Below, one piece after another: positions 2,659 through 55,400 of a stretch of DNA of 64,000 nucleotides. The position numbers and the translations under genes were made by a program. Every line of letters starts with the position of its first letter. The stretch's first letter is position 1. The stretch is from a virus (lineage: Duplodnaviria; Heunggongvirae; Uroviricota; Caudoviricetes). The notes under the pieces are model-generated. The model saw only the letters and a program-made list of their open reading frames with translations. It had not been told where the DNA came from and searched no databases. The DNA is taken from the IMG/VR virus record IMGVR_UViG_3300043024_000042. The stretch is one strand, 5' to 3'.

Positions 2659-2762
2659 TGATAAAACGATATTCGGGCTGGCTGTACAGCCTTAGCGAGA
2701 GGGATTTTTCCACTCTTGAAATCATCTTTATATATTGATACATAACATATAACGTAAGACGT
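2659..2762 (+). promoter_or_regulatory. CRISPR leader, copy 1 (104 nt, 100% identical to 5599..5702)
   Basis: TGATAAAACGATATTCGGGCTGGCTGTACAGCC...TATATATTGATACATAACATATAACGTAAGACGT lies immediately upstream of the first repeat. It has an AT-rich 3' half and is exactly duplicated at array 2. Confidence 0.6.
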
Positions 2763-3123
2763 GTTGTATGTTATCTGATTTTTCAGACGATATACAGCTA
2801 AAGATAGCTGCGAGAAATACCCATGTAGTTGTATGTTATCTGACTTTTCAGACGATATACAGCCATTTAGATGTTTGGCAAAGATTTATTTGGTTGTATG
2901 TTATCTGACTTTTCAGACGATATACAGCGTGTGGTACACAGAAATCCTCTTTTTTGGTTGTATGTTATCTGATTTTTCAGACGATATACAGCATGAATAA
3001 GATTATGGTTGAATTAGATAAGGTTGTATGTTATCTGATTTCTCGGATGATATACAGCGTCGCCCATTCGCTATCTTTAATCTGAAAGTTGTATGTTATT
3101 TGATTTCTTGGATGATATGCAGC
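2763..3123 (+). CRISPR. CRISPR array 1: 6 repeats of 36 bp (GTTGTATGTTATCTGATTTTTCAGACGATATACAGC), 5 unique spacers of 28-30 bp, repeats degenerate toward the 3' end
   Basis: Repeats at 2763, 2828, 2893, 2957, 3023 (2 mismatches) and 3088 (4 mismatches). Spacers at 2799-2827, 2864-2892, 2929-2956, 2993-3022 and 3059-3087. A further decayed unit ends near 3170. The repeat is an almost full-length hairpin with a TTTT loop. Confidence 0.85.
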
Positions 3124-3247
3124 GAATACTGCATCATAATGATACTATTCATTTTTAGATGATATACATCCGAAGTATCTCTACATAAATGTTAATAATT
3201 TAGTTACAAGATTTAGAATATGTGGAATATTAAAAGGAATTGGTTAG

Positions 3248-3616
3248 ATGATCGTTATACAGAAACAACCTTGGCATGATTTCACCCGTGTAATCATCAT
3301 GCAGGTTCACGAGAGCAAACCCGTAGCCGTTGCATCCGTTCAGATTGACCTTTACGAGAAAGAGCAGTGCTGGGGCGGTACGGCTTACATCTATGGCTTG
3401 TGGGTGGACAAGGATATTCGCAGAAGGGGCATCGCAAAAACGCTGCTTATGCTTGTCGAGAAATACGCAAAGCAAAACGGACACAAGTCAGTGATATTGG
3501 AATGGAACTTGAACGATACCCCGGTTGAAGTCCTGCATTGGTATATAAGGTGCGGATATGAGGGTATCGAGTTTAAGGATAATAGCAAACGGATTAAATT
3601 GGAAAAGAAATTTTAG
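3248..3616 (+). CDS. GNAT-family N-acetyltransferase
   Basis: Acetyl-CoA motif A, GLWVDKDIRRRGIAKTLL (R-x-x-G-x-A). About 120 aa, typical of minimal GNATs. Confidence 0.6.
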   Translation: MIVIQKQPWHDFTRVIIMQVHESKPVAVASVQIDLYEKEQCWGGTAYIYGLWVDKDIRRRGIAKTLLMLVEKYAKQNGHKSVILEWNLNDTPVEVLHWYIRCGYEGIEFKDNSKRIKLEKKF

Positions 3617-5291: not shown

Positions 5292-5601
5292 TATATACAC
5301 TGCCTTTCAGGAACAATATCCCGAACTGTTGGGCGAGCTAAAAAGTGAGAAAGACCTTTATATGGTTTGGTGTATCGAGACCCGGCAAATCGGTGTATCT
5401 TATCGGATACGTGAGGATTTCCCATCCAAAATAATGCACGAGGCTTCTTGCGATCGTCTTGACGATGGTCGTTGGTTCAGAAGCGAGTATCTGATAGACG
5501 AGCATACCAACACTTATAATGTATATGTCTATTTCCCTGAAAACATTTGGACCATTATGAACATTGTAAAAATGTGGAATAAGAAAAGAATTTATGACTG
5601 A
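5233..5601 (+). CDS. hypothetical protein; stop codon abuts leader copy 2
   Basis: ORF runs to a TGA at 5599-5601. The 5' end overlaps the previous gene, so the true start is probably internal. Confidence 0.35.
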   Translation: MKSKKIRKIYHRLIAAVPYNIYTAFQEQYPELLGELKSEKDLYMVWCIETRQIGVSYRIREDFPSKIMHEASCDRLDDGRWFRSEYLIDEHTNTYNVYVYFPENIWTIMNIVKMWNKKRIYD

Positions 5602-5702
5602 TAAAACGATATTCGGGCTGGCTGTACAGCCTTAGCGAGAGGGATTTTTCCACTCTTGAAATCATCTTTATATATTGATACATAACATATAACGTAAGAC
5701 GT
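5599..5702 (+). promoter_or_regulatory. CRISPR leader, copy 2 (identical to 2659..2762)
   Basis: Exact 104-nt duplicate of the array-1 leader, starting at the stop codon of the upstream gene. Confidence 0.6.
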
Positions 5703-6181
5703 GTTGTATGTTATCTGATTTTTCAGACGATATACAGCTCTAAGTCATAGTGATAGTTTATAGTAATGTTGTATGTTATCTGATTTTTCAGACGATATAC
5801 AGCCAGAAATTAGTAAGTATTCAAATTGGCTTGTTGTATGTTATCTGATTTTTCAGACGATATACAGCGAGGTACTCTTTTTATGGATTCCTTTCCTGTT
5901 GTATGTTATCTGATTTTTCAGACGATATACAGCAAGAGGAAAATCAGTGCATCACTGGTGCCTGTTGTATGGTATCTGATTTTTCAGATGATATACAGCG
6001 AAATAGATAAGAGTTCGCATAGGTTGTATGTTATCTGATTTTTAGATGATATACAGCCAAAGATAATAAAATCTATGACAGAGCGAGTTGTATGTTATTT
6101 GATTTCTCGGATGATATACAGCGCCAACGACGTTGGACTTTTAGAGTTGTATGCAGTTTGTAAAGCCGAATGATATACAGC
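5703..6181 (+). CRISPR. CRISPR array 2: 8 repeats with the same 36-bp consensus, 7 unique spacers of 23-30 bp, 3' repeats progressively degenerate
   Basis: Repeats at 5703, 5768, 5833, 5898, 5964 (2 mismatches), 6023 (35 bp), 6087 and 6146 (heavily decayed). Spacers at 5739-5767, 5804-5832, 5869-5897, 5934-5963, 6000-6022, 6058-6086 and 6123-6145. Confidence 0.85.
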
Positions 6182-6218
6182 GAACTGCCATTAGCATTAT
6201 TAACCAAAGCGATAATTT

Positions 6219-7319
6219 ATGATAATAACAAGAAAGATTCAGGTCTATGTCTCGGACGAGGATAAAGACCAAAGAAAGGAAATGGTTCACACCGTTTACA
6301 CATGGCGAGACCTTGTTAGGCGCACGGCAAACATGATTGTGGCGCACAAGTTCGTTCAGCAACAAGTCCGTGATTTCGTCTACTTGAAGGACGAGATTCA
6401 GGAGAAGTTCTACGTCAAGGATATCTTGAAGGAGGGCAAGGGTATGAGCGAGCAGAACACCACCTACCGCATCGCAGCGGATATGTTGAAGGGCAAAGTT
6501 CCTGCCGACATCTATTCCTGCCTTAATCAGGCGGTGGCGAACACCTTCAAAGAGACCATCAAGGATGTGAACACGGGTAAGGCGAGCGTGAGAAGTTACA
6601 AGAACAACATTCCCATGCCGTTCAGTGCGAAAGCCCTTTCCAATATCCATTGGTCGGAAGAGGATAACCGTTTCTACTTCACTCTGTTCGGTATTCCCTT
6701 TGCAACATCCCTCGGTCGTGACAGAAGTAACAACAAGGTGATCATCGAAAGAACCATCAGCAAGGAGTACAAACTTTGCTCGAGTTCCTTGCAGATTGAT
6801 GATAAGAAAAAGAAGATGTTTCTCTTGCTCTGCGTGGATATACCCAAGAAGGAGGTCGAGTTGGAGAAAGGCAAGCAACTGCTCGCCACCCTCGATGTAA
6901 TGGCACCCATTGTCGCTGTTATCGGCAGCAAGCGGTATGAGATAGGAACCAAGGAAGAGTTTACCTACCGCAGGGTGCAACTGCAAGAGGCGGTAAGACG
7001 CTGCCAGATTGAGAATAGATACAATAATGGCGGGAAGGGTCGCAAGCGCAAGACGCAGGCGATAGAGCGGTTTCATGAGAAGGAGAATAACTACGTAGAT
7101 ACGAAACTGCACACCTACTCCCGTATGCTGGTCGATTTGGCGGTCAAGAACAAATGCTCCGAGATTGTCCTGCTTGACCAAAAGCGCAGGGAGGACGAGG
7201 CGAAGGAGGATAATCAGAACGGAGAGCCTTTCGTTTTGCGTAACTGGTCTTACTTCGGGTTGGAGAGTAAGATTGATTACAAGGCCAAGACGGTTGGGAT
7301 TGCGTTAATTAAAAAATAA
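6219..7319 (+). CDS. Cas12f/TnpB-like RuvC-fold protein, C-terminally truncated (no Zn finger or RuvC-III), RuvC-II Glu replaced; TldR-like dead mini-Cas12 architecture
   Basis: Recalled from memory, not by search: similarity to Un1Cas12f1/TnpB. TnpB-type N-terminus RKIQVYVSDEDKDQRKEMVHTVYTWRDLVRRTANMIV. WED/RuvC-I block MFLLLCVDIPKKE..LLATLDVMAPIVAVIG, cf LNLSIDVPKID..IIGGIDVGVKSPLVCAI. Block GGKGRKRKTQAIERFHEKENNYVDTKLHTYSRMLVDLAVKNKCSEIVLLDQKRRED, cf HGAKNKLKPITILTEKSERFRKKLIERWACEIADFFIKNKVGTVQMENLESMKRKED. C-terminus NWSYFGLESKIDYKAKTVGIALIKK, cf FWPYAEMQNKIEFKLKQYGIEIRKV. The ORF stops where the Cas12f Zn finger would begin. The start is preceded by the variant element GCATTATTAACCAAAGCGATAATTTATG. 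Confidence 0.6.
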   Translation: MIITRKIQVYVSDEDKDQRKEMVHTVYTWRDLVRRTANMIVAHKFVQQQVRDFVYLKDEIQEKFYVKDILKEGKGMSEQNTTYRIAADMLKGKVPADIYSCLNQAVANTFKETIKDVNTGKASVRSYKNNIPMPFSAKALSNIHWSEEDNRFYFTLFGIPFATSLGRDRSNNKVIIERTISKEYKLCSSSLQIDDKKKKMFLLLCVDIPKKEVELEKGKQLLATLDVMAPIVAVIGSKRYEIGTKEEFTYRRVQLQEAVRRCQIENRYNNGGKGRKRKTQAIERFHEKENNYVDTKLHTYSRMLVDLAVKNKCSEIVLLDQKRREDEAKEDNQNGEPFVLRNWSYFGLESKIDYKAKTVGIALIKK

Positions 7320-7330
7320 TTCAGATAAAG

Positions 7331-7909
7331 ATGGGAGAAGAAGAGAAGATACTGGATGTGGACGGGAAGCCCGTAGGATTTGGTAAATGCAACCTTGAAG
7401 GAATACAAGGTTTGGGAGAGGATTTTAATGCGTTGGCCGACGATATGGCCAATGATGTTAAGCAAATATTAGGTCACTACCTTGTGCAGAAATGTATAGA
7501 TGAATTTGTCAATATCGAAGAGAAGGAGCCTGATCATACCGAACCCGAAAAAGAATCCCTTACTTATGGTAAAGCGCAGATTAATTATGAAACTGGCGAA
7601 CTTGTAAAGACGAGTATAGGCTCGTATATTTGTTCCAGTGCAACGCTCCCCGTGTCCGCCCCATTTTATAGCCGCTCTATATGGGAATATTGGGTGTATT
7701 TCTGTTTGAGAGGCCAAGTCCCAGCTGATCCTGACTTTAAGGACTACGCTTACTCCAATTTCTGGCGCATCGTCAAAGAGATGATATACCACAAGAAGAG
7801 AATGGGGCTTGCAAAGTCGGAAGGATTCAGGAGACACCACGAGAAACGATTGAAGAGTTTGGAAAATACTTATAAATTTAGTTTGACTTGGAATGGAAAC
7901 GGAAATTAA
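7331..7909 (+). CDS. hypothetical protein; N-terminus (GKCNLEGIQGLGEDFNALADD) may be a decayed RuvC-III remnant in a different frame from 6219..7319
   Basis: KCN...EDFNALADD loosely resembles Cas12f KCNFKENADYNAALNI. Only one Cys, so no Zn finger. About 150 further residues are unlike Cas12f. Confidence 0.3.
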   Translation: MGEEEKILDVDGKPVGFGKCNLEGIQGLGEDFNALADDMANDVKQILGHYLVQKCIDEFVNIEEKEPDHTEPEKESLTYGKAQINYETGELVKTSIGSYICSSATLPVSAPFYSRSIWEYWVYFCLRGQVPADPDFKDYAYSNFWRIVKEMIYHKKRMGLAKSEGFRRHHEKRLKSLENTYKFSLTWNGNGN

Positions 7910-9820: not shown

Positions 9821-10312
9821 ATGAAAGTAAAAATCAAGAAACTGAACGCGAAGGCCATCCTGCCCAAACGTGGGTCGATGGACGCGGCTGGCTATGACAT
9901 CTATGTGGCCGAGGATACCGTGGTACATAATGGCAGGCAGGTGATACCTACCTACCTTTCCGTGGAACTTCCGAAATGGCATTATGCAGGCATCGAGCCG
10001 CGTAGCGGTAACGAGAGCAAGGGTATCGAAGGCATCCCCTACCATATATGGGCCTGCCGTGAGTTGGGTATCGAGAAGCAGCGTTTTGACTGCGATGTGC
10101 TGCGCGGTATCGTAGACGCGGATTACAGAGGTCCCATCGGTGTTATCGTGAACAACCATGGCTGCGAGTTTGTCCTGCCGAGGGGCAGCAAGATTGCGCA
10201 GATGGTGCTGCACGAGTTCAAGACAATGGATTTTGAGGTGGTCGATGAGCTGTCTGACACCGAGCGTGCAGGCGGCGGTTTCGGGAGTACGGATCATGCG
10301 AAAGAAGGTTGA
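9821..10312 (+). CDS. dut: dUTP diphosphatase (dUTPase)
   Basis: All five dUTPase motifs are present: AAGYDIY, PRSGNESKG, GIVDADYRGPIG, SKIAQMVL and RAGGGFGSTD. Confidence 0.85.
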   Translation: MKVKIKKLNAKAILPKRGSMDAAGYDIYVAEDTVVHNGRQVIPTYLSVELPKWHYAGIEPRSGNESKGIEGIPYHIWACRELGIEKQRFDCDVLRGIVDADYRGPIGVIVNNHGCEFVLPRGSKIAQMVLHEFKTMDFEVVDELSDTERAGGGFGSTDHAKEG

Positions 10313-10622
10313 TACATCCGTCAATGGAGAGGTGCTACCCGAGCAGAAGCGGGAGCAGCGTTATCCTCTCCGTCTCAATTCCAACACCGTCATTATGGTC
10401 AGGAAGGAGAATCTGAATGAGGAATATGCCGAGAAGAAGCGTATCCAGTTAGGACTTATAGCCGTTGAGAAGCCCAAGATGAAGGGCAACCAACGTGTTA
10501 CCATTACGGAGAATGAGTTGCGCAGACTGCGTGAAGAGGGTGTGACCGTCAAGGATATCGCCCACGAGTACAACTGCGGACCGAGAACGATAGCAAGACG
10601 AATTAAAGAGTTTGGATTATGA
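10296..10622 (+). CDS. small HTH DNA-binding protein
   Basis: C-terminal helix-turn-helix TVKDIAHEYNCGPRTIARRIKEFG. ATG at 10296 overlaps the dut 3' end. The ORF-track start at 10158 is an over-extension. Confidence 0.45.
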   Translation: MRKKVDTSVNGEVLPEQKREQRYPLRLNSNTVIMVRKENLNEEYAEKKRIQLGLIAVEKPKMKGNQRVTITENELRRLREEGVTVKDIAHEYNCGPRTIARRIKEFGL

Positions 10623-11590
10623 CATTAAGAGTATTCGAGGCTTTTGCAGGATATGGCTCGCAAGCCATTGCATTAAAGCGACTTGCAAGATTTTACCCCC
10701 CCCTAAAATTGGAATTTGTAGGGATTTCGGAAATTGATAAAAACGCTATCATTGCTTATAAAGCCATACATGGAGACATCCGTAACTATGGCGATATATC
10801 GGCTATTGATTGGAGTGAAGTTCCTGATTTCGACCTGTTTACTTACTCTTTTCCCTGCCAGGATATTTCCAACGCTGGCTTGCAGAAAGGCTTTACAGAG
10901 GGCAGCGGGACGCGCAGCTCGTTGCTTTGGGAGTGTAAGAAAGCGATAGAGGTCAAACATCCAAAATACCTGCTGATGGAGAATGTGAAGGCACTTACCC
11001 AAAAGAAGTTCATGCCATATTTCAAGATGTGGGTGGATTGTTTGGAGGGTTATGGATACAAGAACTTTTGGAAAGTGCTTAACAGCAAGCACTACGGGGC
11101 TCCGCAAAACAGAGAGCGGGTGTTCATGGTATCCATCCGTGATGATGGCGACAATCCATCATACACTTTTCCCGAACCGTTCCCCTTGCAGAAACGTCTC
11201 AAAGACATTCTCGAGAAGGAAGTGGATGAGAGTTTCTATCTGCGCCAGGAGCAAGTGCAGCGCATCGTGGCACATTGCGAGAGAAAGGTTGCGGAGGGCT
11301 GCGGGTTCAAGACGAACTTCACTGATGGCAGCAGCGTGAGCGGAGCTATCAAGACCAAGGAGGGTAATCGCGAGTACGATACCTACGTGAAGGAACCTGC
11401 GCCAAAATACGGGAATAGCAGATTGAACAAGATGATCAAGGATGGGAAGATTGATCCGGACAAAACAGAGTGGGTGGATGCTTACAACCAACCCACCAAC
11501 GATGAGATATCCGGCACCATCCTTACCCGAGTGGATGCGAGCAATCATTACTTAATCAACGAGGGGGGTAAAATGCGTGAACCAATATGA
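10619..11590 (+). CDS. C5-cytosine DNA methyltransferase, N-terminal catalytic part (motifs I-VIII)
   Basis: FAGYGSQ (motif I), ISEIDKNAIIAY (motif II), FPCQDIS (motif IV PCQ), LMENV (motif VI), QNRERVF (motif VIII). Contains a C8 tract at 10696-10703. Ends just after a G6 tract at 11563-11568. Confidence 0.85.
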   Translation: MTLRVFEAFAGYGSQAIALKRLARFYPPLKLEFVGISEIDKNAIIAYKAIHGDIRNYGDISAIDWSEVPDFDLFTYSFPCQDISNAGLQKGFTEGSGTRSSLLWECKKAIEVKHPKYLLMENVKALTQKKFMPYFKMWVDCLEGYGYKNFWKVLNSKHYGAPQNRERVFMVSIRDDGDNPSYTFPEPFPLQKRLKDILEKEVDESFYLRQEQVQRIVAHCERKVAEGCGFKTNFTDGSSVSGAIKTKEGNREYDTYVKEPAPKYGNSRLNKMIKDGKIDPDKTEWVDAYNQPTNDEISGTILTRVDASNHYLINEGGKMREPI

Positions 11591-12442: not shown

Positions 12443-12895
12443 ATGGCGAAGAAAGAAGTTAAGCGTGCCGCGGACGAACTGAAAAAGATTGCCCAAGCGT
12501 CACGGAGTTGTGATGTCGGTGTGACTATCAATCCCGACAATTCGCTCAGACCCTTCAATAAGGGCAGTAAGGCGAAGGATGGAATTAGTGAGTATTGTAC
12601 CGACTACGAGTGCGGTATCGGTTCCACGACCATCGCCGCACGGCCCAACAAGGTCTACGGTGATTCAACCCGTTATCGAATCCGCAAGCTGACCCCGGTT
12701 GAGACGGGTCGCTTGATGGGTATGGATGATGAGGATATACAGAAGATGAAGGATGCGGGATTGAGCAAGTCCGCCATGTACAAGCTGCATGGTAACTCCA
12801 TCGTGGTGGATGTGCTGTTCTATATCTTCCGCAATCTCTTCATTGATGAGTTCAAGAACCCGCAACCGAAAGGGCAGTTGACATTGGATTTTTAA
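12443..12895 (+). CDS. C5-cytosine methyltransferase, C-terminal part (a fifth TRD core plus motifs IX-X)
   Basis: GSTTIAARPNK (TRD core), RKLTPVETGRLMGMDD (motif IX) and KLHGNSIVVDVLFYIF (motif X). One extra C in the 12410-12416 tract would fuse it to the upstream frame-0 TRD. Confidence 0.75.
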   Translation: MAKKEVKRAADELKKIAQASRSCDVGVTINPDNSLRPFNKGSKAKDGISEYCTDYECGIGSTTIAARPNKVYGDSTRYRIRKLTPVETGRLMGMDDEDIQKMKDAGLSKSAMYKLHGNSIVVDVLFYIFRNLFIDEFKNPQPKGQLTLDF

Positions 12896-14179: not shown

Positions 14180-14341
14180 ATGAAAACAATAAAACTTCTT
14201 TTAGTGATTATTTTAATTGTTGTTTTGTTCTCATGCGCTCTTAGGTTATTGAGCGCGTCCTCTACTTATGCCAATATTTTAGGCTTTTCGATTATGGTTT
14301 TGGAACTTGGTGGTATTTTTGAGTATTTAACTGGAGAATGA
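14180..14341 (+). CDS. small membrane protein or lipoprotein, 53 aa, not in the ORF track
   Basis: MKTIKLLLVIILIVVLFSCALRL... is hydrophobic with an LFSC lipobox-like motif. Ends with an ATGA overlap to the next gene. Confidence 0.35.
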   Translation: MKTIKLLLVIILIVVLFSCALRLLSASSTYANILGFSIMVLELGGIFEYLTGE

Positions 14342-15129
14342 AAAAGTTAAGTTTCTTAAAGGTGCTTTTTATAGCACTTATTTCAATGATGATGTTCTCA
14401 TCTTGTGCAGAGCGCATTGATGCAGGACATGAAGGAATTCTCGTAAACCTCTATGGTGATGAGAAAGGTGTGGGTGACGTGTCAATGTGTACCGGCATGG
14501 TGTGGTACAACCCTATCACGACCGCGGTATACGAATATCCTACATTCGTGCAGACTGTGGACTACGAACCGTTCACCATCAATGCAAAGGATGGATCCGA
14601 GTTTACTGTGGACCCGACAATCTCCTTGAAGATTATTGACGGGAAATCTCCCGAAGTGTTTAAGAAGTACAGAAAGGAGTTGAAGGATGTAATCAATACT
14701 ACGCTCTACAATTACGTAAAGAACGCTTTCCGTATTCAGCTGAATAACTTCACTACGGATTATATTGTAAGCAATCGTGATAGTATTGAAAACGCGATTG
14801 AAAAGTATCTTTCATCAGACTTAAAGAAAGAGAATTTTCAACTGGAGCAACTTACTTCCGGCTTGAAGTATCCCGAGATTATCGTGAAGTCTGTTAACGA
14901 GAAGAACAAGGCGATACAAGACGCACAACGAGCGGAAAACGAAGTGAAGGTAGCCGAAGCCAACGCAAAGAAGGTGTTGGTGGCAGCGCAAGCGGAAGCG
15001 GAAGCAAACCGATTGAAGCAGCAGGCCCTCACTCCGCAGATTCTCGAAAAGATGTGGATTGACAAGTGGAACGGAGTTTTGCCGGTATACGGACAAGTGC
15101 CTACACTCTTTAAGGATATCAGCAAATGA
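14338..15129 (+). CDS. SPFH/band-7 (prohibitin-like) family lipoprotein
   Basis: Signal peptide with lipobox (MMMFSSCAE). SPFH-type body with a C-terminal Ala/Glu-rich coiled coil (KVAEANAKKVLVAAQAEAEANRLKQQAL). Confidence 0.6.
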   Translation: MKKLSFLKVLFIALISMMMFSSCAERIDAGHEGILVNLYGDEKGVGDVSMCTGMVWYNPITTAVYEYPTFVQTVDYEPFTINAKDGSEFTVDPTISLKIIDGKSPEVFKKYRKELKDVINTTLYNYVKNAFRIQLNNFTTDYIVSNRDSIENAIEKYLSSDLKKENFQLEQLTSGLKYPEIIVKSVNEKNKAIQDAQRAENEVKVAEANAKKVLVAAQAEAEANRLKQQALTPQILEKMWIDKWNGVLPVYGQVPTLFKDISK

Positions 15130-18405: not shown

Positions 18406-19204
18406 AAGAGTTATGCTTATGGTTATTTCCATTATTAACAACAAGGGAGGTGTAGGCAAGACTATGACTGCCCAAAACCTCGGTGCTGCGCTTGCCCTTT
18501 GTGGCAAGCAGGTTTGTCTTATCGACCTCGACAGCCAGCACAATCTGACCACTCGATACGAAAACACGGGAAGGGAAGAGGTTAAAGACGGTGAACTGTA
18601 TTCCAATCAGACCATTGAGGATTACATTGACAATCCACGGCTACCCATTCGCCCGTTGAAGGTGAAGGACAATCTCTATATCATCCCATCGACCACAAGG
18701 CTCGCAAGGGTGAGCGCTGCCATGTACAATCTTAGCAAGGGACAGCAACCAAGCTACAAACTTTCCAATATATGCAATGCTATGCGCCAGGGCTTCGACT
18801 ATATTATAGTGGACTGCGCACCGAGCATGAGCGCTTTGATGGTGAACGCTGCGGTAGCCGCAGACATGATCATCATCCCCGTGAGTTGTCAGGATGCCCT
18901 GATGGGAGCAGGTGAGGGTGTATTTGAGTTGATGGACAACAACAAACTCGACACTCCTTATTACTTCCTCCAGACTATCTATGAGGACCGTTTGAAGTCC
19001 AACCGCGACCGCAAGCGTCAGTTACTATCCAAGGCTTTTGACCATACTTTGCACACGGAGATAAAGAGGAATGAGTATCTGAACCTCTCTGCGGAGTGCG
19101 GTCAGGATGTGTACGAGTATGCTCCCAAAAGCAGGGGAGCGGAGGATTACATGACTTTGGCATTAGAAGTAATCGGTATTACCAGCAAAAGAAGAAAGGA
19201 GTAA
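18395..19204 (+). CDS. parA: ParA/Soj-family partition ATPase
   Basis: Deviant Walker A ISIINNKGGVGKTMTAQNLG and Walker B IIVDCAPS. 269 aa. Confidence 0.85.
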   Translation: MSIKRVMLMVISIINNKGGVGKTMTAQNLGAALALCGKQVCLIDLDSQHNLTTRYENTGREEVKDGELYSNQTIEDYIDNPRLPIRPLKVKDNLYIIPSTTRLARVSAAMYNLSKGQQPSYKLSNICNAMRQGFDYIIVDCAPSMSALMVNAAVAADMIIIPVSCQDALMGAGEGVFELMDNNKLDTPYYFLQTIYEDRLKSNRDRKRQLLSKAFDHTLHTEIKRNEYLNLSAECGQDVYEYAPKSRGAEDYMTLALEVIGITSKRRKE

Positions 19205-21882: not shown

Positions 21883-22860
21883 TCAATAGAAATAATTAAG
21901 GGTTAATGAATTGAATTTCTCTTTCTCTGTGACGAGATACGTCTGCGTGATGGATGTGGACGAGTGACCCATAAACTTGCTTATGGTCAGGATATCCACA
22001 CCGTGCAGATAGAGGTTGCAAGCAAATGAACGTCTTGCAGTGTGCGAACCAATGTATTTGTATTTCTCCCCGATCATGCGTTTCCCGGCGAGGAATACAG
22101 ATACCTTTTGTGTGATGCCAGCCTTCTTGCAAATCTCCCGAACGTAATGGATGAAGGTTGCGAGGGAAACTTCGCGCTCTTTCGCCTGGTTGAAGTAAGT
22201 CAGGAAGTTGCGGTGCAGCGGCACTGCAATGACCGACTTGGACTTCTGCGATACGTAACGGATAATCCTGCTGTCTTCGTCAATCATCTCCTTCTCGATA
22301 AGCATAAGGTCTGACCTTCGTCCGCCAAGATAGAACTCACAGAGCCATTGCGCCTTGCAGATTCTCTCCATTTTGTTCTCCGGCTCATACGCTTCGAGTA
22401 ATGCTATGTCCGCTTCCGAGAGATACACATTCTCTGATGGCTCATCCTTAACGGATAGCACTTCCTTGTAGGATGTGGTCGGAAGTTCAACGTCGTCTCT
22501 CCATAAGTTAAGCACGGCTTTGAGGATCTTCGTGTACGTCCTTACGGTTTTCGCGCAATTCTTATCCTTCATCAGTCGGACGGTTTTAGCCAGATTCTGC
22601 TTTGTGAGGTCCTTCCATTGCGGAAACTTCTTTCCGGTACCTTCTATTACATAAGGGACGATGTTCGTACCATTATTGGGATGCTTTAATAGCAATGCAC
22701 CAACGAATGACTGCGACCACTTCTCAATGTCCTGACCTTTCTTGTAGTAACCAAGGTAGGCAATCCTTCGAGGAATTTTCGGGTCTCCAACACCGTGAAA
22801 AGCGTGTTCGTAGAGATATTTGCCAGCCTCGATTACTGGCACTGAATAACGTACTCCCAT
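21883..22860 (-). CDS. int: tyrosine site-specific recombinase/integrase
   Basis: C-terminal catalytic region HTARRSFACNLYLHGVDILTISKFMGHSSTSITQTYL (R..H..R..Y). The early-gene element and a GC hairpin (GAGCCGC...GCGGCTC) lie upstream at 22861-22920. Confidence 0.85.
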   Translation of the reverse strand: MGVRYSVPVIEAGKYLYEHAFHGVGDPKIPRRIAYLGYYKKGQDIEKWSQSFVGALLLKHPNNGTNIVPYVIEGTGKKFPQWKDLTKQNLAKTVRLMKDKNCAKTVRTYTKILKAVLNLWRDDVELPTTSYKEVLSVKDEPSENVYLSEADIALLEAYEPENKMERICKAQWLCEFYLGGRRSDLMLIEKEMIDEDSRIIRYVSQKSKSVIAVPLHRNFLTYFNQAKEREVSLATFIHYVREICKKAGITQKVSVFLAGKRMIGEKYKYIGSHTARRSFACNLYLHGVDILTISKFMGHSSTSITQTYLVTEKEKFNSLTLNYFY

Positions 22861-41560: not shown

Positions 41561-43318
41561 TTATTGTCGCTTTTTATCAAAATCATCCCAGTTATTCTCT
41601 CCTAAGAAATTGCCGTTCTTGTCCCACGTCTTTCCGCTCTTGTTGGGTCTGCCAGGCCTGCGTCCGCGACCGCCCGTATTGACATTACCCTGGTATCCCT
41701 GCGTCTTTCTCTGCGGGGTGTCATTGGCCTTTGTTGGGTCGATATCGTTCTGTAACTGGGCCATAGTGGTCTGCACCTGACCGGTGGTGTTCACATCCCC
41801 GTTGAGGATCTGCGCGCCCATTGTCTGCTGGAGGTTGGCCAGCACATCCTGCTGCTGCTCTTCCTCGATCTCCGACTTGATGCGCTCAATCTCGTCATTG
41901 GTGGTGTATACACCCGCGCGCATGGATGCCGTGCGCTTCGACATGAACTTGTTCTGCACACCGAGCGCGAGGTTCTGCATGAGTTCGGCCACATTCTGCG
42001 GAACATAAGGCTCGATCCACACATTCATCTTCAACGCTGCGAAGTCAAGGGTATGTTCCGTCTCCACTCCGTATCCATATCTGAATATCTCAACAACCCC
42101 GTCGATGAACTGCGCGAAGTCGTTGCTGTCTACCGTAGCCTGCTCGATGGCCACATGGAAGAGCAGACGGATGGATGATGAGGGTGTATCACCTGATTTC
42201 AACTCCACGTTCTTCACGCACTTGCTCTGCTGGTAGATGGCATCCTCGAGCATATCCAGCTCGGACTTGTAGGACGAGGATGCGTCCTGACGCTGCAAGA
42301 AGCCCGCCTCGCCGTCCTCGGGGATAGTCACCACCTTTACCGCGTTGTTCATGTCTCCCACAACATCGACACCCTCCCCTTTGAGATACATGATAGGTGT
42401 GCCGAAGGCATGGTTGCTCTGCGCGAGCCGTGAGAAGGCAATCTCGTAATTGTCGATGCTGTCCTGCGACTGCGACCAGCACGCACCCATATCGTTTCGG
42501 TGGTACACTACCGGGATGCGGGGGAACATGTGCTTCTTTCTCTCCACAATCTCATATCCGCTCTGTCCGTAGATGCTCTTGATGGAGTTGAGTAAGCGGT
42601 CTATCCTTGTCGCCTCTCCGCGTTTTAGACGGTAGTAATACTCATTATCCCACACCTCTATCCACGAGGTCACTGTGATGCCATCCTTATCCACATCTGT
42701 ATACTCGCGCGCGAGGCAGTTCAGGTCTCCCGTCTCCGGGTCAAAGTGGGGATAAATCTTGTCACCCTTCTCGTAGGAGAAAACGCGCCAGCCGAACTTG
42801 CCGTTCTTAAGATAGCCGACAAAGGCGGTATCTCCGGTCGCCTTGACAGCTCGAGCAGCCTCGTACCATGCCACCTCCATGCCTTTGTTGAGCCACCCGA
42901 GTCGGAAGGTTTGGAACATCTGCTCCTGATTCTCATTCTCTTTCGTGGATAGCAGCTCGAACTGAACATCATTCGCGCAGAGGTGTGTGAGTTGCTTGGT
43001 GAGGATGTCGTACTGGAAGCCGAAGGCATAGCGCGGCACTTCCTCCACGAACCACTTCCCACTCTCCGGGTCCTGCCGCCAAATGTCGGGATAGTACTGC
43101 TTGTTCCAAATCATGTGGCCGTTCTTGTCAAGCTCGCGCAGGAAGTCGGCCTGCGTCACGATGTCGAACAGCGGCTGGTCGCCCTGATAGGTGTTCAGGC
43201 TCTTTTCCCGGTCCCTCGTGAAGCCACCGCTATGATACCCTTCCGGACGGATGCGCACGAAGGGCGGCTTCAACAGCAGGTCTTGTATGCCCTGCTTAGT
43301 CAAACTTAAATTCTCCAT
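41561..43318 (-). CDS. putative portal protein
   Basis: 585 aa, immediately downstream of the terminase large subunit. Gly/Arg-rich basic C-terminal tail. Confidence 0.5.
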   Translation of the reverse strand: MENLSLTKQGIQDLLLKPPFVRIRPEGYHSGGFTRDREKSLNTYQGDQPLFDIVTQADFLRELDKNGHMIWNKQYYPDIWRQDPESGKWFVEEVPRYAFGFQYDILTKQLTHLCANDVQFELLSTKENENQEQMFQTFRLGWLNKGMEVAWYEAARAVKATGDTAFVGYLKNGKFGWRVFSYEKGDKIYPHFDPETGDLNCLAREYTDVDKDGITVTSWIEVWDNEYYYRLKRGEATRIDRLLNSIKSIYGQSGYEIVERKKHMFPRIPVVYHRNDMGACWSQSQDSIDNYEIAFSRLAQSNHAFGTPIMYLKGEGVDVVGDMNNAVKVVTIPEDGEAGFLQRQDASSSYKSELDMLEDAIYQQSKCVKNVELKSGDTPSSSIRLLFHVAIEQATVDSNDFAQFIDGVVEIFRYGYGVETEHTLDFAALKMNVWIEPYVPQNVAELMQNLALGVQNKFMSKRTASMRAGVYTTNDEIERIKSEIEEEQQQDVLANLQQTMGAQILNGDVNTTGQVQTTMAQLQNDIDPTKANDTPQRKTQGYQGNVNTGGRGRRPGRPNKSGKTWDKNGNFLGENNWDDFDKKRQ

Positions 43319-46011
43319 ATTCCTTTTGGTTTAGTGATTTTCTTTGCTTTAACGTCGAATATCATACGCATGATAAGAGCCTCGAAGAAGTCCGGCGAGT
43401 GTCCCACGAACTTTTTCATCTTATCCTTGCCGATGATGTAGAATCCCTTATCCACCTTGGACTCATCCTTGCGGACGCATTTTCGCTCCTTCATCAGGAC
43501 TTGTCTTAGCGGCATCTTCTCAAAACCCTTGCCCGAGAATTTCAGGTCGAGCAGCCTTGGGTTGATGGATATCTCCCTCTCGTAAATCTTCTTGGTAAAG
43601 AGATACGCGCACTGCGATTTTAGGTTGCCGTACAAGTTCTTCTCTTTCTCGTCGACAGCCTCTTGGTTGTTGAAGGGCACGGCTTTCTGAAACCATCCTT
43701 TAAGCGTCTGCCCCACACCCTGCAAGTCGTATGTGAAATGCTCGTCAGTGACACCCCACTCGGTGAGCTGCGCGCGTACCGCATTAACCGTATTCTTCGG
43801 GTCGAGTTTGAACACAGCGATGTCGGTTATATGCCAGCCGGTCCACAGCCACATGACGAGTGAGTCGCCTCCGTCGAAGGCTACGTCACACGACACCCGT
43901 TTTATCCCGTCGCCTATCATCTGCGCTTGTTCATACATCGCCTCGAGGTCGGTCATTTTAATCATATCGTCTCCAATGGCCTTGTAGTTCCAGTTACCCT
44001 CGAGGTCTCGCGCGCGCTGTTCCTCTCCCTGCTGGGCAAGGTTGGCCACATAGGACGGGTCGGAGGTAATGAGTTTTATATTCTCTTCCACGTTACCCTT
44101 GATGAACGTAGCGGACTTGATGAACATCTTCAACTTGTCAAAGCCGAGTTCACCATACGCAGGCTTCCAAAGTCTGTCGATGGTGTCCTTGCATTGCAGG
44201 TAAACCTCTTCCCGTGTGTTGCCCCAATAAATGCCGGATGGCGAATCTCCGTCCATGAAGCAATAGCGCACCACACCGCTCCGCTCTGGGATAGGCAGTC
44301 CGTCCTCTCCGATCCACCATGCGATGAAGCCTCTGACCCATGAGTCGGGGTCTGGGTTGCAGGTCCCGTATATTCTGTTACGGATGCCGTAAGCATTTCG
44401 GGAGTCCGTGATGATGTACTTGAACTTGTTATAGGGCATGTGTGTAATCTCGTCAATGCCGATATAGGGGTATTGCTTGCCCTGGAATCGCTTTTTGAAA
44501 TCCTCGTAGTCACCTTCATAGAACGTAAAGCGCAGGGAACCTCCTTTATAGAAGTTCCACGTCATATCATTCAGTGACTTGTTGTATGTGCCGAACTGCG
44601 AGTAAAGCAGGGGAGCATCTTTTGTCAGACTCTCCAAGTCACCCTTCTCGTTACGGAGGATGATAGCGTTGAAACGGGGATTGTAGATGTCTTTAAGCGT
44701 TTCCATGAGTAAGGAGAAGGAGTTATGCGTCACAATGAAATCATCAGTAATGTAAAGTGCATTAGGGTTGCTGACCGCTATACAACGACACTTCTCGTAA
44801 CCGACAAATTCATATCCAACAATTCTACGGCAAGGTATTGAAACATCACCGTTATACTCCTTGCATAGTTCCCTTTTCCGGCTCAGCCTGAACAGACGTT
44901 CTTTATTAGCAATTTTAATACATAGAGTATAGGCATCTTGACAGCGAATATATTCACCGTCCTTTTTATATCCAGCCTCATGCTTTATGATTGTTACAGA
45001 ACTTCCAATAGATTCAAGCATATATCGCATGTCATAAGCGAGCGTTTCGCTTACTGTCGTATATGTCAATCTTCCTTTAGATGAGCAACAACCATCCGTA
45101 TCCATCATACCTTGAATAAGAGCAATTCTTTCATCCAATGGAGCTGTTTTATAGTATGATGGGATAAATTTTGAATTGGAAACACATCCAATCAGTCCCA
45201 TTTCATATAGCTGATTATAAAGATCAGCACATTTAATGCGATAATCTTTTGCTTCACTTGCCTGCTTCTTATAAGACGAGTCCATAGATATCCCTGCTGA
45301 TACAAATTGGTTTACTATTTCTTCGTCAGCGGACGTGAATATGATTACACCATGTTCAGTAGCAATTTCAGAAACGCATCCATCACCTATTATAGCCCCA
45401 ATGACGTAAGGATTGATGGTTGGCGCCCATCCATTTACAGCGCGTGTAAACTTGATTGGCTCAGAAAGAGGAATGAGTAGATGTGAGTCATACTGCGACT
45501 TTTTTGCGTTTCCCTGATTGTCAAGAAAATCTTTAATCATTGAAAACGTCCAAGTTCGCCAATCCATTTCTTGGCCACCTCCATTATTCTTTCTCTTTTT
45601 CGTAATCAAATTGGTTCTTTTGATATTCCACAAGTGGTCCTCTGTGCAGTCTGTGAACGTGCCATCGGAGAATTTGAGCCGATAAATCGGCTTAACACCC
45701 CATTCGGTAATACAGATTACATTTTGAATACTACCCATTGTGTCGTTTATCATATCTCCGACACGCAAATCACCAATAGGCTTAAACCCGAAAGGTGTGC
45801 AGACCTTTGAGTAATAAGGTTGTGCTTTCGAGCAGCCCCGGGATCCGCCTACGATTACGATATCTGCGGACGACGACAAGAAAATTTCCTGACAGCCCCT
45901 TTGAGCGTAGTAAGCCGAAGGGGTTGCCTTGTTCATGTCCGCTTGGCGCATCTTATCCATGCACTCATAGGAAATCACTTTGTTTCCGTCTTTGTCTCTA
46001 ATGTCTATCAT
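43306..46011 (-). CDS. terL: terminase large subunit interrupted by an intein with a LAGLIDADG homing endonuclease
   Basis: Walker-A-like VIVGGSRG before the insert. After the insert: Walker B IGIDEITH and nuclease Asp motifs (CDVAFDGGDSLVMWLW). Insert carries GAIIGDGCV and IQGMMDTDGC (2x LAGLIDADG) and ends ..FIVTHN|S. Confidence 0.8.
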   Translation of the reverse strand: MIDIRDKDGNKVISYECMDKMRQADMNKATPSAYYAQRGCQEIFLSSSADIVIVGGSRGCSKAQPYYSKVCTPFGFKPIGDLRVGDMINDTMGSIQNVICITEWGVKPIYRLKFSDGTFTDCTEDHLWNIKRTNLITKKRKNNGGGQEMDWRTWTFSMIKDFLDNQGNAKKSQYDSHLLIPLSEPIKFTRAVNGWAPTINPYVIGAIIGDGCVSEIATEHGVIIFTSADEEIVNQFVSAGISMDSSYKKQASEAKDYRIKCADLYNQLYEMGLIGCVSNSKFIPSYYKTAPLDERIALIQGMMDTDGCCSSKGRLTYTTVSETLAYDMRYMLESIGSSVTIIKHEAGYKKDGEYIRCQDAYTLCIKIANKERLFRLSRKRELCKEYNGDVSIPCRRIVGYEFVGYEKCRCIAVSNPNALYITDDFIVTHNSFSLLMETLKDIYNPRFNAIILRNEKGDLESLTKDAPLLYSQFGTYNKSLNDMTWNFYKGGSLRFTFYEGDYEDFKKRFQGKQYPYIGIDEITHMPYNKFKYIITDSRNAYGIRNRIYGTCNPDPDSWVRGFIAWWIGEDGLPIPERSGVVRYCFMDGDSPSGIYWGNTREEVYLQCKDTIDRLWKPAYGELGFDKLKMFIKSATFIKGNVEENIKLITSDPSYVANLAQQGEEQRARDLEGNWNYKAIGDDMIKMTDLEAMYEQAQMIGDGIKRVSCDVAFDGGDSLVMWLWTGWHITDIAVFKLDPKNTVNAVRAQLTEWGVTDEHFTYDLQGVGQTLKGWFQKAVPFNNQEAVDEKEKNLYGNLKSQCAYLFTKKIYEREISINPRLLDLKFSGKGFEKMPLRQVLMKERKCVRKDESKVDKGFYIIGKDKMKKFVGHSPDFFEALIMRMIFDVKAKKITKPKGIWRI
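44722..45834 (-). mobile_element. intein, about 360-370 aa, with a LAGLIDADG homing-endonuclease domain
   Basis: N-terminal Cys (aa 60 or 71 of TerL), two LAGLIDADG motifs about 95 aa apart, C-terminal His-Asn followed by Ser. Exact N-junction uncertain. Confidence 0.55.
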
Positions 46012-46209
46012 AACAAACAGAGGCCCGCCTGCAAGCCATATACGACCTGCACGCGAGCCTCTTGGACTTCTTGATGATTAATGTACCCTGCAAATATAGC
46101 AATGTCTTAGTATTTAGCGAATAAAAATCAAATTATATCGAAATTTTTTCCGAAAATATTTGCCAATGTGCCATGACATTTATATGTTTGCCCTCGTAAT
46201 AATAACCTT

Positions 46210-46458
46210 ATGGCATACAGAGTAAAAGAAACCTTAACTACTCCTGAGTATATCAGGAAATACGGCCGGGAGCCGAAAACAGTACGATGCCCCTATTGCA
46301 GCCACAAACTCTTGGAGTTTGAGGAACCGATAAGGGGTATTGTGAGATTGAAGTGCAGACGATGCAGCCGTTCCTTGGAACTGACGTTTTACAACCCGCC
46401 TGCCTCATTCAATCCTCCCAAGGCCGTTGAGGATATCGGTCTTTCAACATCGGTATGA
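46210..46458 (+). CDS. small zinc-ribbon protein
   Basis: CPYCSH..(17)..CRRCSR: four Cys in two CxxC pairs. Confidence 0.4.
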   Translation: MAYRVKETLTTPEYIRKYGREPKTVRCPYCSHKLLEFEEPIRGIVRLKCRRCSRSLELTFYNPPASFNPPKAVEDIGLSTSV

Positions 46459-52493: not shown

Positions 52494-55400
52494 ATGGAAG
52501 GAACAAGTTTGGGTAATCTTTATTTCGAGCTGGGGATAAAGGATACCGCCACGCAGAACATTGACGGGGTTATCAAATCCCTGCAAGAGAAGCTGAAAGT
52601 CCTGGAGGTAGGAGGCTTGAAGTTCAAGGAAGGCTCTGTGAATGGACTAAAGAAGATGATTGAAGGAGGTCTGTACGGCCTCGAAGTTGCCGTTTCGCAG
52701 GACAGCATCGTATCAAGCATCAATAAGGCCATCAAGACAGGAGCGTTTTCATCCATCAACCTTAGAGCGTTCATCGCCGAGGATGAGTTCAATAAAATCA
52801 GCTCGCAAATCGAGGCTTTGAAAACAAAGGCTCAGGGTGTCGTTATCTCCGTCAAGAATGTGGGTGGTGGTGACGTAAACCTCAATCCTATCATCAACAG
52901 CGGAAAGCCGATAGAGTTGAAGGGTACGGCAAGTATTGTCGCTAACCTTGACGTAGAGGCCACCCGCGCGTCTCTGCAAGCGCAGCTCGCTAAAATAACC
53001 GGGTTGAAGGTTGATGTACAAGTCAATCCTATCACCCCTGCTGGTACTACTCCTTCCGCACCGGCTCGTCAGCGCACGCGCACCGCCGACAGTAATCAAC
53101 TCAATTTAAACTTCTCGGAGAAGGTAGTCACTTCATCTAAGAAGGCCGAACAAGCTTTCAGGCAGGAAGGTTCTGCCATAGAAATGCTTATCAGTGAGTA
53201 CGAACGATTGGAGGCGAGAAGAAAAGACCTCGACTCCTTATCGGAGGGGACCATCGAACCAAAGATGGATGAGACGGCTGCGAGGATTGAAGCCATCCGC
53301 AAGAAGATAAACGAGAATGTCAACGCTATCGGTCATGCGAACCAGCAAACCAAGAAGAGTCTCAAACCAAGCGTAAATATATCCGACCTAAAGAAGCAAA
53401 TTGAGCTTGACCGGGTTGAACTTGGAAAGGCTGAAATGGAGGCTGGCAAACTTGATAGACAGAATACTGACATCGAGCGGCAATTTAAGGTGATTGGGGA
53501 TCGAATAGCACAAATCCGCAAGATACTATATCCCGATGAAACGCTAAATTGGAACGCTAAATCAGCTGGCAATAGAGTTGCAAGTCTTGAAAAGAGTATA
53601 ATAACAGAAACTACGCTTTTGGATAAGGTGACAAAGGATATAGCCGAGTCACAGTCCAAACTTGACGCTCTGAAACAGAAAGGCTCGGGTAGCCGGGCAG
53701 AAGAAGCCAAACTCGAAGCTCTAATCAAGAAATCAGAGCGATACAAACAACAGCTCGAAAGGTACAAACTGTCGCTCGAAGAAGCGAAGCGCAAGAAAGC
53801 GGAAGCAGACAGCGCACTCGCGGACTTCGAGTACACCCGTTATGCTCCTACATCAGCAACCCCCTCTACTCCTACGCAAACCGCTCAGGTCTCCACCACC
53901 GTAGCGCAAAAGGAGAAGGAGGCAGCGAATGTTCAGAAAGAGGCTGCTCAGGCGAAAAAGGAAGCCGCGCAAAAGGAGAAGGAGGCGACATCTGAAAGCA
54001 CGAAGTCCGCTAAGGCAAAGTCTGATGCAGAGAAGGCGAACGAAGCAGCCATTAAATCCCGCATTGCCACCATCAAGAAGTATGATTCCACAATGGATAC
54101 CATGCGTCTGTCTATCGCACGCAAGGGTAAGAAACTCAATGACGAGTTGCGAGACTTTGCACGCGAGCGCTCGCGTATCTATCAGGAAACACTCAAACTC
54201 AATGGCGGGCGCGAGGCGATCAACGATTACTTGGTCGGCAGAAAGGAATCCATCGGGCTTGTTACATTGAAATCAAAATACGCTTACGATGCGAAAACCG
54301 CGGATGTGAGCGAGAAGTCCGCTGCAAAGGAGGAAGCGGCAGCAAGCAGACTTTCCGCCAAACTTATCGAGATAAAGGGCCGGATGTATGACCGTATGGC
54401 CAAGCTGGACGAAGCGGCAGCGGCAAAGACAGTAGCCATTCAGACCAGCCTTTTCATGCGTGCCGAGCGTATGCAGTGGCAGCAGTCAAACAAGTCGAGC
54501 GATATATCCGCTCGTGGCGGAAAGGTGTCTGTCTACGAGAGGAATGTGGCCCTGCTGGAAGAATTTCAAAAGAAATTGCTTGCCATCGAGTCTCTTGAAG
54601 ATGCGATGGCCGCAAAGAACACGTTTGCGCAGCTCTCGTCCAACATCCAGTCTACCACGAGCAATGCGGATAAGTTGAATCAGTCGTATATCCGCAACAA
54701 GGAGGCCATCGAAAAACTCGCTGTTGCTGCCCAATCCAGTTATGCGATAGCCGATGCAAGTGGCAAAACCGGTCTGAGCGCAGGCATAACGGCGGCATAC
54801 GAAGAGTTGAAGAAATTCAATGACAAGCTTGCAGACCCCTCCAAGTGGACCTCGATAGATACTCTCGGAAAGGAGTTTAACGATATTAAGCTGAAGATTG
54901 TCGCTGCGGAAGCCGAGTACGCCAAATTCAACAAGGGATTTATCTCCACCGACAAGGCTGTCGAGAAGGTGGATTCCGCACTTGTCAAACTTGCTAACAA
55001 GAAACGCGAGCTGGATAATTATAAAGGTACTCGTGGCGCGGAGTGGCAGAACGCGCTCAATGCCCTTAATGCTTATATCGCCAAACTTCAATCGTTGAGA
55101 TCGAGCGGAGATATTAACAGCAAGAGTATTGTCGGAAAAGCTACCGGTGTAGAATTACAGCAGGCCATCCTGAGAGTTAACCAATATCTTGATGCTCAGA
55201 AGCGCGCGGATACTGCCACGAGAGCATCTGCAAGTTCTCACGGAGTAGCGGAGAAGGCCATTAGAAAACATGCGGATGCAAATGCGAAGCTTAGCGCGAG
55301 CCTTAGCAAATCAGGTGGATTGTTACACCTTAACATCAATCTCATGCAGCAACTCGGCTCTATGATTGGTATGTACTTCTCTATATACACCTTGCAGCGT

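Follow-up and report, generated by a model that had tools for sequence, protein, structure and literature searches.

Introduction

The best characterised system close to the locus described here is the sigma-E-linked, nuclease-deactivated Cas12f (dCas12f) of Flagellimonas taeanensis (Fta), reported by Hoffmann et al. (Nature 2026, PMC13472631; structures 9n9c etc., 10.1101/2025.06.10.658880). The same work, without experiments, sets apart a "distinct cluster" of dCas12f proteins encoded near CRISPR arrays, upstream of which lies a covarying RNA (Extended Data Fig. 1a,b). Repression was proposed for these array-linked proteins, which may target efflux promoters, and phages are not mentioned. 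Altae-Tran et al. (PNAS 2023, PMC10691335) inferred a path by which a Cas12f loses its activity and RuvC-III, the array is minimised, half a repeat is fused to the trans-activating CRISPR RNA (tracrRNA), and a clade linked to RpoE, MobC, relaxases and integrases results. A further group of inactive proteins, the TldRs, are TnpB-like nuclease-dead repressors (Wiegand et al. 2024, PMC10705468). Here, we analyse a dcas12f gene (6219..7319) and the two CRISPR arrays that accompany it in a 64,000-nt stretch of DNA from a tailed phage, IMG/VR record IMGVR_UViG_3300043024_000042; this whole stretch is referred to as the window.

The dCas12f family is already published in the two works cited first, and the window provides an added member. 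New here are the in-silico definition of a tracrRNA-like scaffold, the phage and mobile-element context, and evidence for array turnover; literature searches found no paper describing phage-encoded dCas12f arrays. With moderate confidence, we read the locus as a self-contained, nuclease-free module derived from type V-F that would carry out binding and silencing of the CRISPR interference (CRISPRi) kind, aimed at foreign DNA. A preliminary description of the window, made from the letters alone, had already pointed to a probably nuclease-dead, truncated Cas12f/TnpB-like protein next to an array, and its claims are taken up where our results bear on them.

The dCas12f Protein

The open reading frame (ORF) at 6219..7319 on the + strand encodes 366 aa, and every peptide string quoted in the preliminary description is found in its translation. 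The product comprises WED/REC domains and a truncated RuvC domain with the lid PFVLRNWSYF. In a search of all PDB chains, the best match was 9n9c, named "nuclease-deactivated Cas12f" (E 1.9e-80, residues 4-364 against 9-363 of the 365-aa chain), and the pairwise identity to Fta dCas12f, with the Fta sequence taken from the 9n9c alignment, was 39% (E 5e-94). The active nuclease Al3Cas12f from Alistipes ranked second (9nzo/9nzr, E about 3e-50; 2.6e-50 for 9nzo); behind it came further chains of Cas12f and TnpB (1e-27 to 1e-13), and then Un1Cas12f/Cas14a (about 2e-7; 1.9e-7). The PADLOC Cas12f profile PDLC01699 matched residues 1-364 over profile positions 1-341 of 399 (E 1e-55), and NCBIfam guided_TnpB matched at E 3e-15, while Pfam alone was nearly blind to the protein (OrfB_IS605 at E 0.01). 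The similarity to Cas12f noted in the preliminary description is borne out by these profile and sequence searches and, by sequence, the protein is a Cas12f-derived member of the dCas12f family, of the Bacteroidota.

The alignments to active Cas12f relatives in the PDB search end 60-90 residues short of the partners' C-termini, and the missing part corresponds to the Zn finger and RuvC-III. This agrees with the C-terminal truncation described earlier, and 17/17 aligned relatives end at the same point as the window protein. In this 17-member alignment (relatives at 61-95% identity), the common end lies just after YKAK..GI.L and about 98 columns are invariant; together, the shared truncation and the invariant columns indicate purifying selection rather than decay. 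The proposed loss of the RuvC-II Glu was also confirmed: IQMERL of Al3Cas12f aligns gap-free to Leu319 of IVLLDQ, in a column that holds L, M, V or R in the relatives and Met in Fta. For RuvC-I, the region is present as proposed, but the catalytic Asp is not retained. In the HMMER alignment, GVDLG of Al3Cas12f falls on LATLD, which places Thr224 at the Asp position (T/F/Y/W/R/D/M in the relatives); D226, previously taken as this Asp, lies two residues further on and is G, S or D in the relatives. By alignment, all three RuvC catalytic positions are lost, not two. The nuclease-dead reading stands, as the searches returned clear family matches and the alignments revealed no intact Glu, Zn finger or RuvC-III. 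With neither the RuvC-I Asp nor the RuvC-II Glu, and without any of the RuvC-III/Zn-finger segment, the protein is predicted to be unable to cut, and its probable role is RNA-guided binding of DNA, not cutting.

Relatives are numerous, with 1071 in a large protein database; the best 120 of these have at least 59% identity over the aligned part, are 338-429 aa long and have a conserved N-terminus. An identical protein is encoded on 11 contigs from several samples, one of them 93.7 kb in length. In addition, IMG/VR yielded 39 loci with relatives at 35-68% identity. Nearly all of these have arrays adjoining the gene, with 36-nt repeats, 30-nt spacers and 2-8 repeats, and a single locus (L043) has 30 repeats.

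CRISPR Arrays and a tracrRNA-Like Scaffold

Array 2 (5703..6181, + strand) has seven spacers of 23-30 nt and eight repeats, which measure 36 nt except for one of 35 nt. It lies directly upstream of dcas12f on the same strand, as previously described, with a gap of 37 nt between the last repeat and the start codon. Array 1 (2763..3170, + strand) has six full repeats, five spacers and a sixth unit, and closes with a 3′ half repeat (3151-3170); this agrees with the earlier count of 12 spacers (5+7 across the two arrays). No cas gene accompanies array 1; a GNAT acetyltransferase gene comes next and sits between both arrays. The repeat of both arrays is GTTGTATGTTATCTGATTTTTCAGACGATATACAGC, 36 nt in length, and the spacers of 23-30 nt are mostly of 29 nt.

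An in-silico search for a tracrRNA, as suggested in the preliminary description, revealed a conserved tracrRNA-like element before each array. A 141-nt block made up of the leader and the first repeat is identical at 2659-2799 and 5599-5739, and scaffold copy 1 (2667..2733, + strand), within this duplication, is identical to copy 2 (5607..5673, + strand), which scored 77.8 bits (E 4e-21) with R1, a covariance model of the 67-nt scaffold built from phage leaders. In copy 2, hairpin 1 (5615-5632, + strand) carries the loop GCUGUA at 5621-5626, complementary to the last 6 nt of the repeat, and hairpin 2 (5636-5658, + strand) carries the loop GGAUUUUUCCA. The anti-repeat ATCATCT (5661-5667, + strand) pairs with repeat positions about 23-29. 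A single-sequence fold of the scaffold gives both hairpins (z = -3.8), and no Rfam family matches the scaffold or the repeats. The layout (GGGCUG-loop-CAGCC hairpin, second stem-loop, anti-repeat) presumably mirrors the 3′ core of the Un1Cas12f tracrRNA, which we take to form a pseudoknot with the ..AUGCAAC repeat end, like the loop pairing seen here.

Conservation of the leader sequence upstream of the first repeat extends from the window to distant relatives. Among 29 arrays examined, all have a hairpin 84-90 nt upstream of repeat 1 (51-74 nt in three arrays), and in 29/29 the loop of hairpin 1 complements the final six repeat bases of its own array. Loop and repeat end change together (GCTGTA/TACAGC, GTTGTA/TACAAC, GTTGCA/TGCAAC, GCTGCA/TGCAGC and GTTGTG/CACAAC), and the observed complementarity was reached in 0.1% of 2000 partner shuffles. 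In a 23-sequence alignment, the two stems and the pseudoknot-type pairing have 98.8% of cells paired, vs 80.9% in column shuffles (0/500 as high), and 12/18 pairs have changed on both sides; as a control, sliding the 3′ partners by 1-3 columns reduced pairing to 31-56%. Similarly, the anti-repeat covaries with the repeat, with a mean longest duplex of 6.9 vs 5.5 for shuffled partners (0/500 as high).

The repeats of each array decay toward the 3′ end, and in array 2 the last three to four (repeats 5-8) are degenerate. The trailer repeats (5964-6181 and 3023-3170) carry ..AGATGAT.., whereas the leader-proximal and consensus repeats carry ..AGACGAT... The former pair perfectly with the anti-repeat ATCATCT and the latter leave one A·C mismatch. 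Two spacers of trailer units are short (23 nt). From this pairing pattern, the older trailer units may be better substrates than the consensus units.

R1 detected 95 copies in 52 sources, all on the dcas12f strand and most of them within about 1.5 kb of dcas12f or at an additional array of the same locus. The set includes array-less loci, among them L010, the closest IMG/VR relative (68% identity), and L005, a conjugative-element copy. In these two, the scaffold is fused via a half repeat to single guides (L010, 5354-5510 and 6668-7300; L005, 9367-9930 and 11179-11300). Some of the units are in tandem, spaced at about 155 nt, and in every unit the hairpin loop matches the half repeat of that unit (such as GCTGCT/AGCAGC and GCTACA/TGTAGC). 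They resemble guide arrays of the omega-RNA type, in a protein clade shared with the window. Array-type, fused-guide (L010, L005) and sigma-linked (L044, see below) loci are all detected by this one RNA model.

Spacer Turnover and Targets

Near-identical IMG/VR phages have a trailer spacer in common and differ at the leader-proximal position(s). Differences at the leader end combined with a common trailer spacer are the signature of polarised acquisition. Locus L004 encodes the same protein as the window and has three extra spacers in array 2. This turnover also bears on whether the locus could be an inactive relic, that is, a decaying Cas12f pseudogene with leftover arrays. The loss of the catalytic residues and of the C-terminus, the lack of adaptation genes and the degenerate terminal repeats would all fit a relic. 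Yet the 1071 homologues, the C-terminal end and invariant columns shared by the 17 aligned relatives, the covariation of the RNA partner with the repeats, and the different spacer content of phages encoding an identical protein all speak for function, and conservation effectively refutes the relic.

Two protospacers were identified for the spacers of relatives. The first spacer of L022 matches 30/30 bases in a small HigA/XRE-like gene located 5.3 kb away on its own contig, as well as on seven related phage contigs. The other belongs to a spacer of L025, which matches 27/30 bases in the gene for a YqaJ-like exonuclease in L017, a related phage. Both spacers read as the coding strand does, so that the CRISPR RNA (crRNA) would pair with the template strand. 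The target gene in L022 (12343-12960), an antitoxin by similarity, is apparently split by an in-frame TAA followed immediately by an ATG (..REKK-stop-MVQAELPSK..); the split is conserved in 8/8 contigs, with a 145-aa putative toxin ORF upstream. This phage has a spacer against the HigA/XRE-like gene while carrying that gene. For the other spacers of relatives, 122 had no match in INPHARED, and three further scans of IMG/VR gave matches only in arrays.

Self-targeting by the window phage was considered and rejected. Three 14/16 matches were found in the 64 kb, where about 0.5 would arise at random, and a further 10 kb added none; we treat them as chance. One of them, between array 1 spacer 2 (CATTTAGATGTTTGGC..) and positions 46177-46192, is statistically at chance level but suggestively placed: it overlaps a promoter motif of the Bacteroidetes type (46159-46190) that lies shortly upstream of a structural-gene operon starting at 46210. 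The window spacers are AT-rich, with a GC content of 0.35 vs 0.47 for the window. AT-richness as a sign of promoter targeting was rejected, as 137 spacers average a GC content of 0.44, the same as their loci.

An alternative is that the locus is a regulatory switch of the TldR type or akin to Cas12-type autoregulation, the guides of which silence host or phage promoters during infection or lysogeny and not competitors. The spacer of L022 against a gene in its own genome fits such a switch, as do the fixed fused scaffold-guide units used in place of arrays by L010 and L005, the conservation of trailer-end spacers across phages, and the AT-richness of the window spacers. The window spacers, however, have no match in their own 74 kb beyond the chance-level 14/16, one trailer spacer has no match in 185,579 species genomes (GTDB), and turnover at the leader end is typical of acquisition from invaders. 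We therefore regard a regulatory switch as unlikely, and silencing of foreign DNA as the better account of the arrays.

Neighboring Genes and Possible Partners

The neighbors of the relatives are genes of phage replication, recombination and lysogeny (SSB, RecT, ERF, YqaJ, methylases and S24 repressors), and one relative lies in a conjugative element with a relaxase and MobC. No gene is conserved beside dcas12f across the loci, and the flanking genes of the window have no homologues at other dcas12f genes. The next ORF after dcas12f (7331-7909) has no match to TnpB, Cas12 or any other family in Pfam, NCBIfam, PHROGs or PADLOC. This ORF and the other flanking genes were rejected as partner proteins, for lack of family matches and of homologues beside other dcas12f genes. 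Other tandem repeats occur near dcas12f in L007 (12214-12449), L017 (6871-7392) and L008 (8758-8976), with periods of 24/48, 54 and about 60 nt; these lie inside ORFs and are not CRISPR arrays.

No sigma-70-family domain was found in the 69 ORFs of the window or among the 25 families listed for 150 neighbor ORFs of 28 loci, a listing that would miss a single sigma gene within the 57 remaining families, and an E. coli RpoE query found no RpoE-like ORF in 3900 ORF segments except in L044 (IMGVR_UViG_2896109856_000001). This contig, classed as viral by IMG/VR, serves as a positive control and has an rpoE-dcas12f locus and no array. A sigma-E-type protein (Sigma70_r4_2 and a C-terminal extension of about 95 aa) is encoded at 1-744, directly upstream of a dcas12f whose product is 40% identical to that of the window, and an R1 match (1930-1995) lies directly downstream of dcas12f, the position of the published Fta guide RNA (gRNA).

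These data bear on a second alternative, RNA-guided activation of transcription as by Fta dCas12f with sigma-E, in which the protein would recruit a host- or phage-encoded sigma-E with a special C-terminal domain and transcription would start about 46 bp downstream. The full-length identity of 39% to Fta dCas12f and the identical truncation, which in Fta is complemented by the C-terminal domain of sigma-E, favor this possibility, as does the detection by R1 of the gRNA position at the sigma-linked L044. The lid residues that contact sigma region 4 are also kept, with F337 and Y344 of Fta corresponding to residues of PFVLRNWSYF in the window. The same lid is equally conserved in the active Al3Cas12f and is therefore not diagnostic of sigma binding. 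Moreover, the 64 kb of the window contain no sigma-70-family ORF and none was seen beside relatives of at least 45% identity, the sigma-linked L044 lacks arrays, and fast spacer turnover suits interference better than the activation of a fixed gene. Activation is thus distinctly improbable for this locus.

The protein could also be a targeting subunit for an effector supplied in trans, such as a nuclease completing the truncated RuvC, an integrase/recombinase or a replication factor, binding being only the first step. The truncated RuvC surface of Fta dCas12f is indeed a docking site for another protein, the inactivated clade has been linked to integrases, relaxases and MobC (Altae-Tran et al., PMC10691335), and an integrase is encoded in the window (21883-22860) and directly after the array in L043. 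The absence of any gene conserved next to dcas12f across the loci argues against a dedicated effector, and the integrase of the window is 14.5 kb away on the opposite strand. We consider an effector in trans very improbable, and silencing by binding alone is retained below.

Proposed Mechanism

In the favored reading, the module would consist of dCas12f, two genes for the tracrRNA-like scaffold and two mini-arrays; all of these share one strand and are probably co-transcribed. Judging from the homologous Cas12f and Fta dCas12f, the protein would act as a dimer on a guide formed by pairing of the scaffold RNA with the repeat's 3′ half. The anti-repeat of the scaffold would pair with repeat positions 23-29 and the hairpin-1 loop with the last 6 nt of the repeat as a pseudoknot, leaving the downstream spacer as the guide. 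The complex is expected to form an R-loop on complementary DNA beside a short 5′ motif, with the conserved lid PFVLRNWSYF sensing its completion. Stable binding would then block transcription or replication of the target, as a natural CRISPRi, and the most likely targets would be competing phages or mobile elements, possibly the host. Interference is favored over the activation of a fixed gene because a sigma partner is lacking, the arrays turn over, and the two protospacers are in phage genes.

Several results weigh against this reading. A search of the spacers against phage and host genomes, suggested in the preliminary description, gave no target for the 12 spacers of the window. No target of window spacers was found in the phage itself (74 kb), in INPHARED (searched with 15 spacers of the window phage) or in PLSDB, nor in exact scans of IMG/VR (three window spacers), JGI metagenomes (two) and GTDB genomes (one). 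Identifiable protospacers were found for only two of about 137 spacers of relatives, and one of these is also in its own genome. No consistent target-adjacent motif (TAM) emerged, the 5′ flanks of the two protospacers being discordant (..CCTGC and ..TTTTG). In addition, no Pfam family of cas1, cas2 or cas4 was detected among the 69 ORFs of the window or in L043, despite its 30-repeat array. Finally, the closest characterised relative, Fta dCas12f, activates transcription, with no repression, and DNA binding, lack of cleavage and repression by the window protein are all predictions from homology.

A wider proposal, which we put forward tentatively and with a little less than even confidence, is that phages and mobile elements of Bacteroidales widely carry a minimal, adaptive and cleavage-free CRISPR module, made up of a dCas12f of about 366-430 aa, a tracrRNA-like scaffold and a mini-array acquiring spacers in trans, and use it as a heritable CRISPRi against rivals or for host reprogramming. 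If true, this would be a natural, multiplexable and ultra-compact CRISPRi, and a living intermediate between Cas12f immunity and activation by dCas12f-sigma-E.

Phage Context and Host

The phage origin of the contig was confirmed by PHROGs matches to the large terminase (43306-46011, E 1e-56), portal (2e-34), major head protein (4e-16) and primase (6e-45), and ParA was also matched (7e-47). A tape-measure-type protein of 3268 aa (52494-62300, Pfam TMP_3) is followed just past the window by a second giant tail-region ORF of 2413 aa (L080, 10519-17760). The early region (1299-2189, 3248-3616, 9821-10312, 10619-11590, 12443-12895, 14338-15129, 18413-19204 and 21883-22860) encodes PAPS-reductase-like, GNAT acetyltransferase, dUTPase, two C5 DNA methylase, SPFH/Band-7, ParA and tyrosine integrase proteins. 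The presence of ParA and of the tyrosine integrase, the latter at 21883-22860 on the other strand than dcas12f, suggests a temperate or plasmid-like lifestyle. No near relative of the window phage was found in INPHARED.

The Bacteroidetes promoter pattern TTTG-N17-21-TAnnTTTG occurs eight times in the window vs 1.1 expected, and 0/100 shuffles reached eight. These sites lie within 17727-63037, mostly where divergent gene blocks start, and none precedes the arrays or dcas12f. Relatives of the protein in species genomes are almost all in Bacteroidales metagenome-assembled genomes (MAGs). Given the promoter pattern and these relatives, the host is most likely a Bacteroidales bacterium. An early-gene upstream element that had been proposed for dcas12f could not be recovered, as no shared motif was visible in 40 upstream regions. 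Matches to sigma-70-type promoters were set aside as uninformative for Bacteroidota.

Comparison with Known Systems

The locus indicates that the dCas12f family extends beyond chromosomal sigma-E regulons, and that phages and conjugative elements of gut and rumen-type Bacteroidales commonly carry the array-linked form. Its 366-aa protein, scaffold of about 67 nt and 36-nt repeat offer a three-part testable system in which to ask what a nuclease-free CRISPR does for a virus, and the protein is predicted to be a natural programmable binder of DNA that is very small and works from ordinary CRISPR arrays.

Active type V-F Cas12f proteins (Al3Cas12f, 9NZO; Un1Cas12f/Cas14a) share with the window protein the fold and the domain order through the RuvC lid, as well as 36-37 nt repeats ending in ..AUGCAAC or ..AUACAGC. 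In contrast to it, they have an intact D-E-D triad together with the Zn finger and RuvC-III, usually come with cas1/2/4, and cut DNA. The TldR-type architecture assigned in the preliminary description holds in that the protein is dead and truncated. TldR as the closest family does not, since the best TnpB chain matched at E 8e-21 vs 1.9e-80 for dCas12f and 2.6e-50 for Cas12f. Like the window protein, TldRs are small RuvC-dead RNA-guided DNA binders that are often prophage-borne, and they repress transcription. They descend directly from TnpB, have an omega-RNA-like guide and are linked to fliC/oppF, while the window protein is derived from Cas12f and comes with CRISPR arrays; TldR is a functional analogue, not the family. 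Cas12m (V-M) and plasmid-borne type IV-A systems similarly interfere with mobile elements by binding or silencing without target cleavage, and type IV is itself carried by mobile elements, but their effectors are unrelated or only distantly related; the PDB sequence search gave no Cas12m or Cas12k chain.

Fta dCas12f is closest in the protein itself, with 365 vs 366 aa, the same C-terminal end, 39% identity, loss of the RuvC triad, a retained lid and an origin in Bacteroidota. The guide scaffolds are also related, because R1 matches directly downstream of the sigma-linked dcas12f of L044. The differences concern the surroundings and the likely outcome. The window has no rpoE or hth partner and its locus is in a phage; it has repeat-spacer arrays upstream of the gene and a separate scaffold gene, whereas Fta has single chimeric gRNAs downstream. 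The TAM-contact residues M85, H110 and Q144 of Fta are Q, Q and K in the window, and the outcome is likely repression or interference, as opposed to activation in Fta.

The array-linked cluster of Hoffmann et al. and the corresponding stage of Altae-Tran et al. resemble the window in having a truncated, dead Cas12f beside arrays, no sigma-E, a conserved structured RNA upstream and a proposed role in repression. That cluster comes from bacterial MAGs, such as a Chitinophagaceae MAG with an efflux-promoter target, and the window clade is likened to it by description. The window fills in the intermediate stage in the series from Cas12f to dead Cas12f with an array, fused guide and sigma-E partner, and is an extant example, on a phage, of the second stage of the Altae-Tran path.

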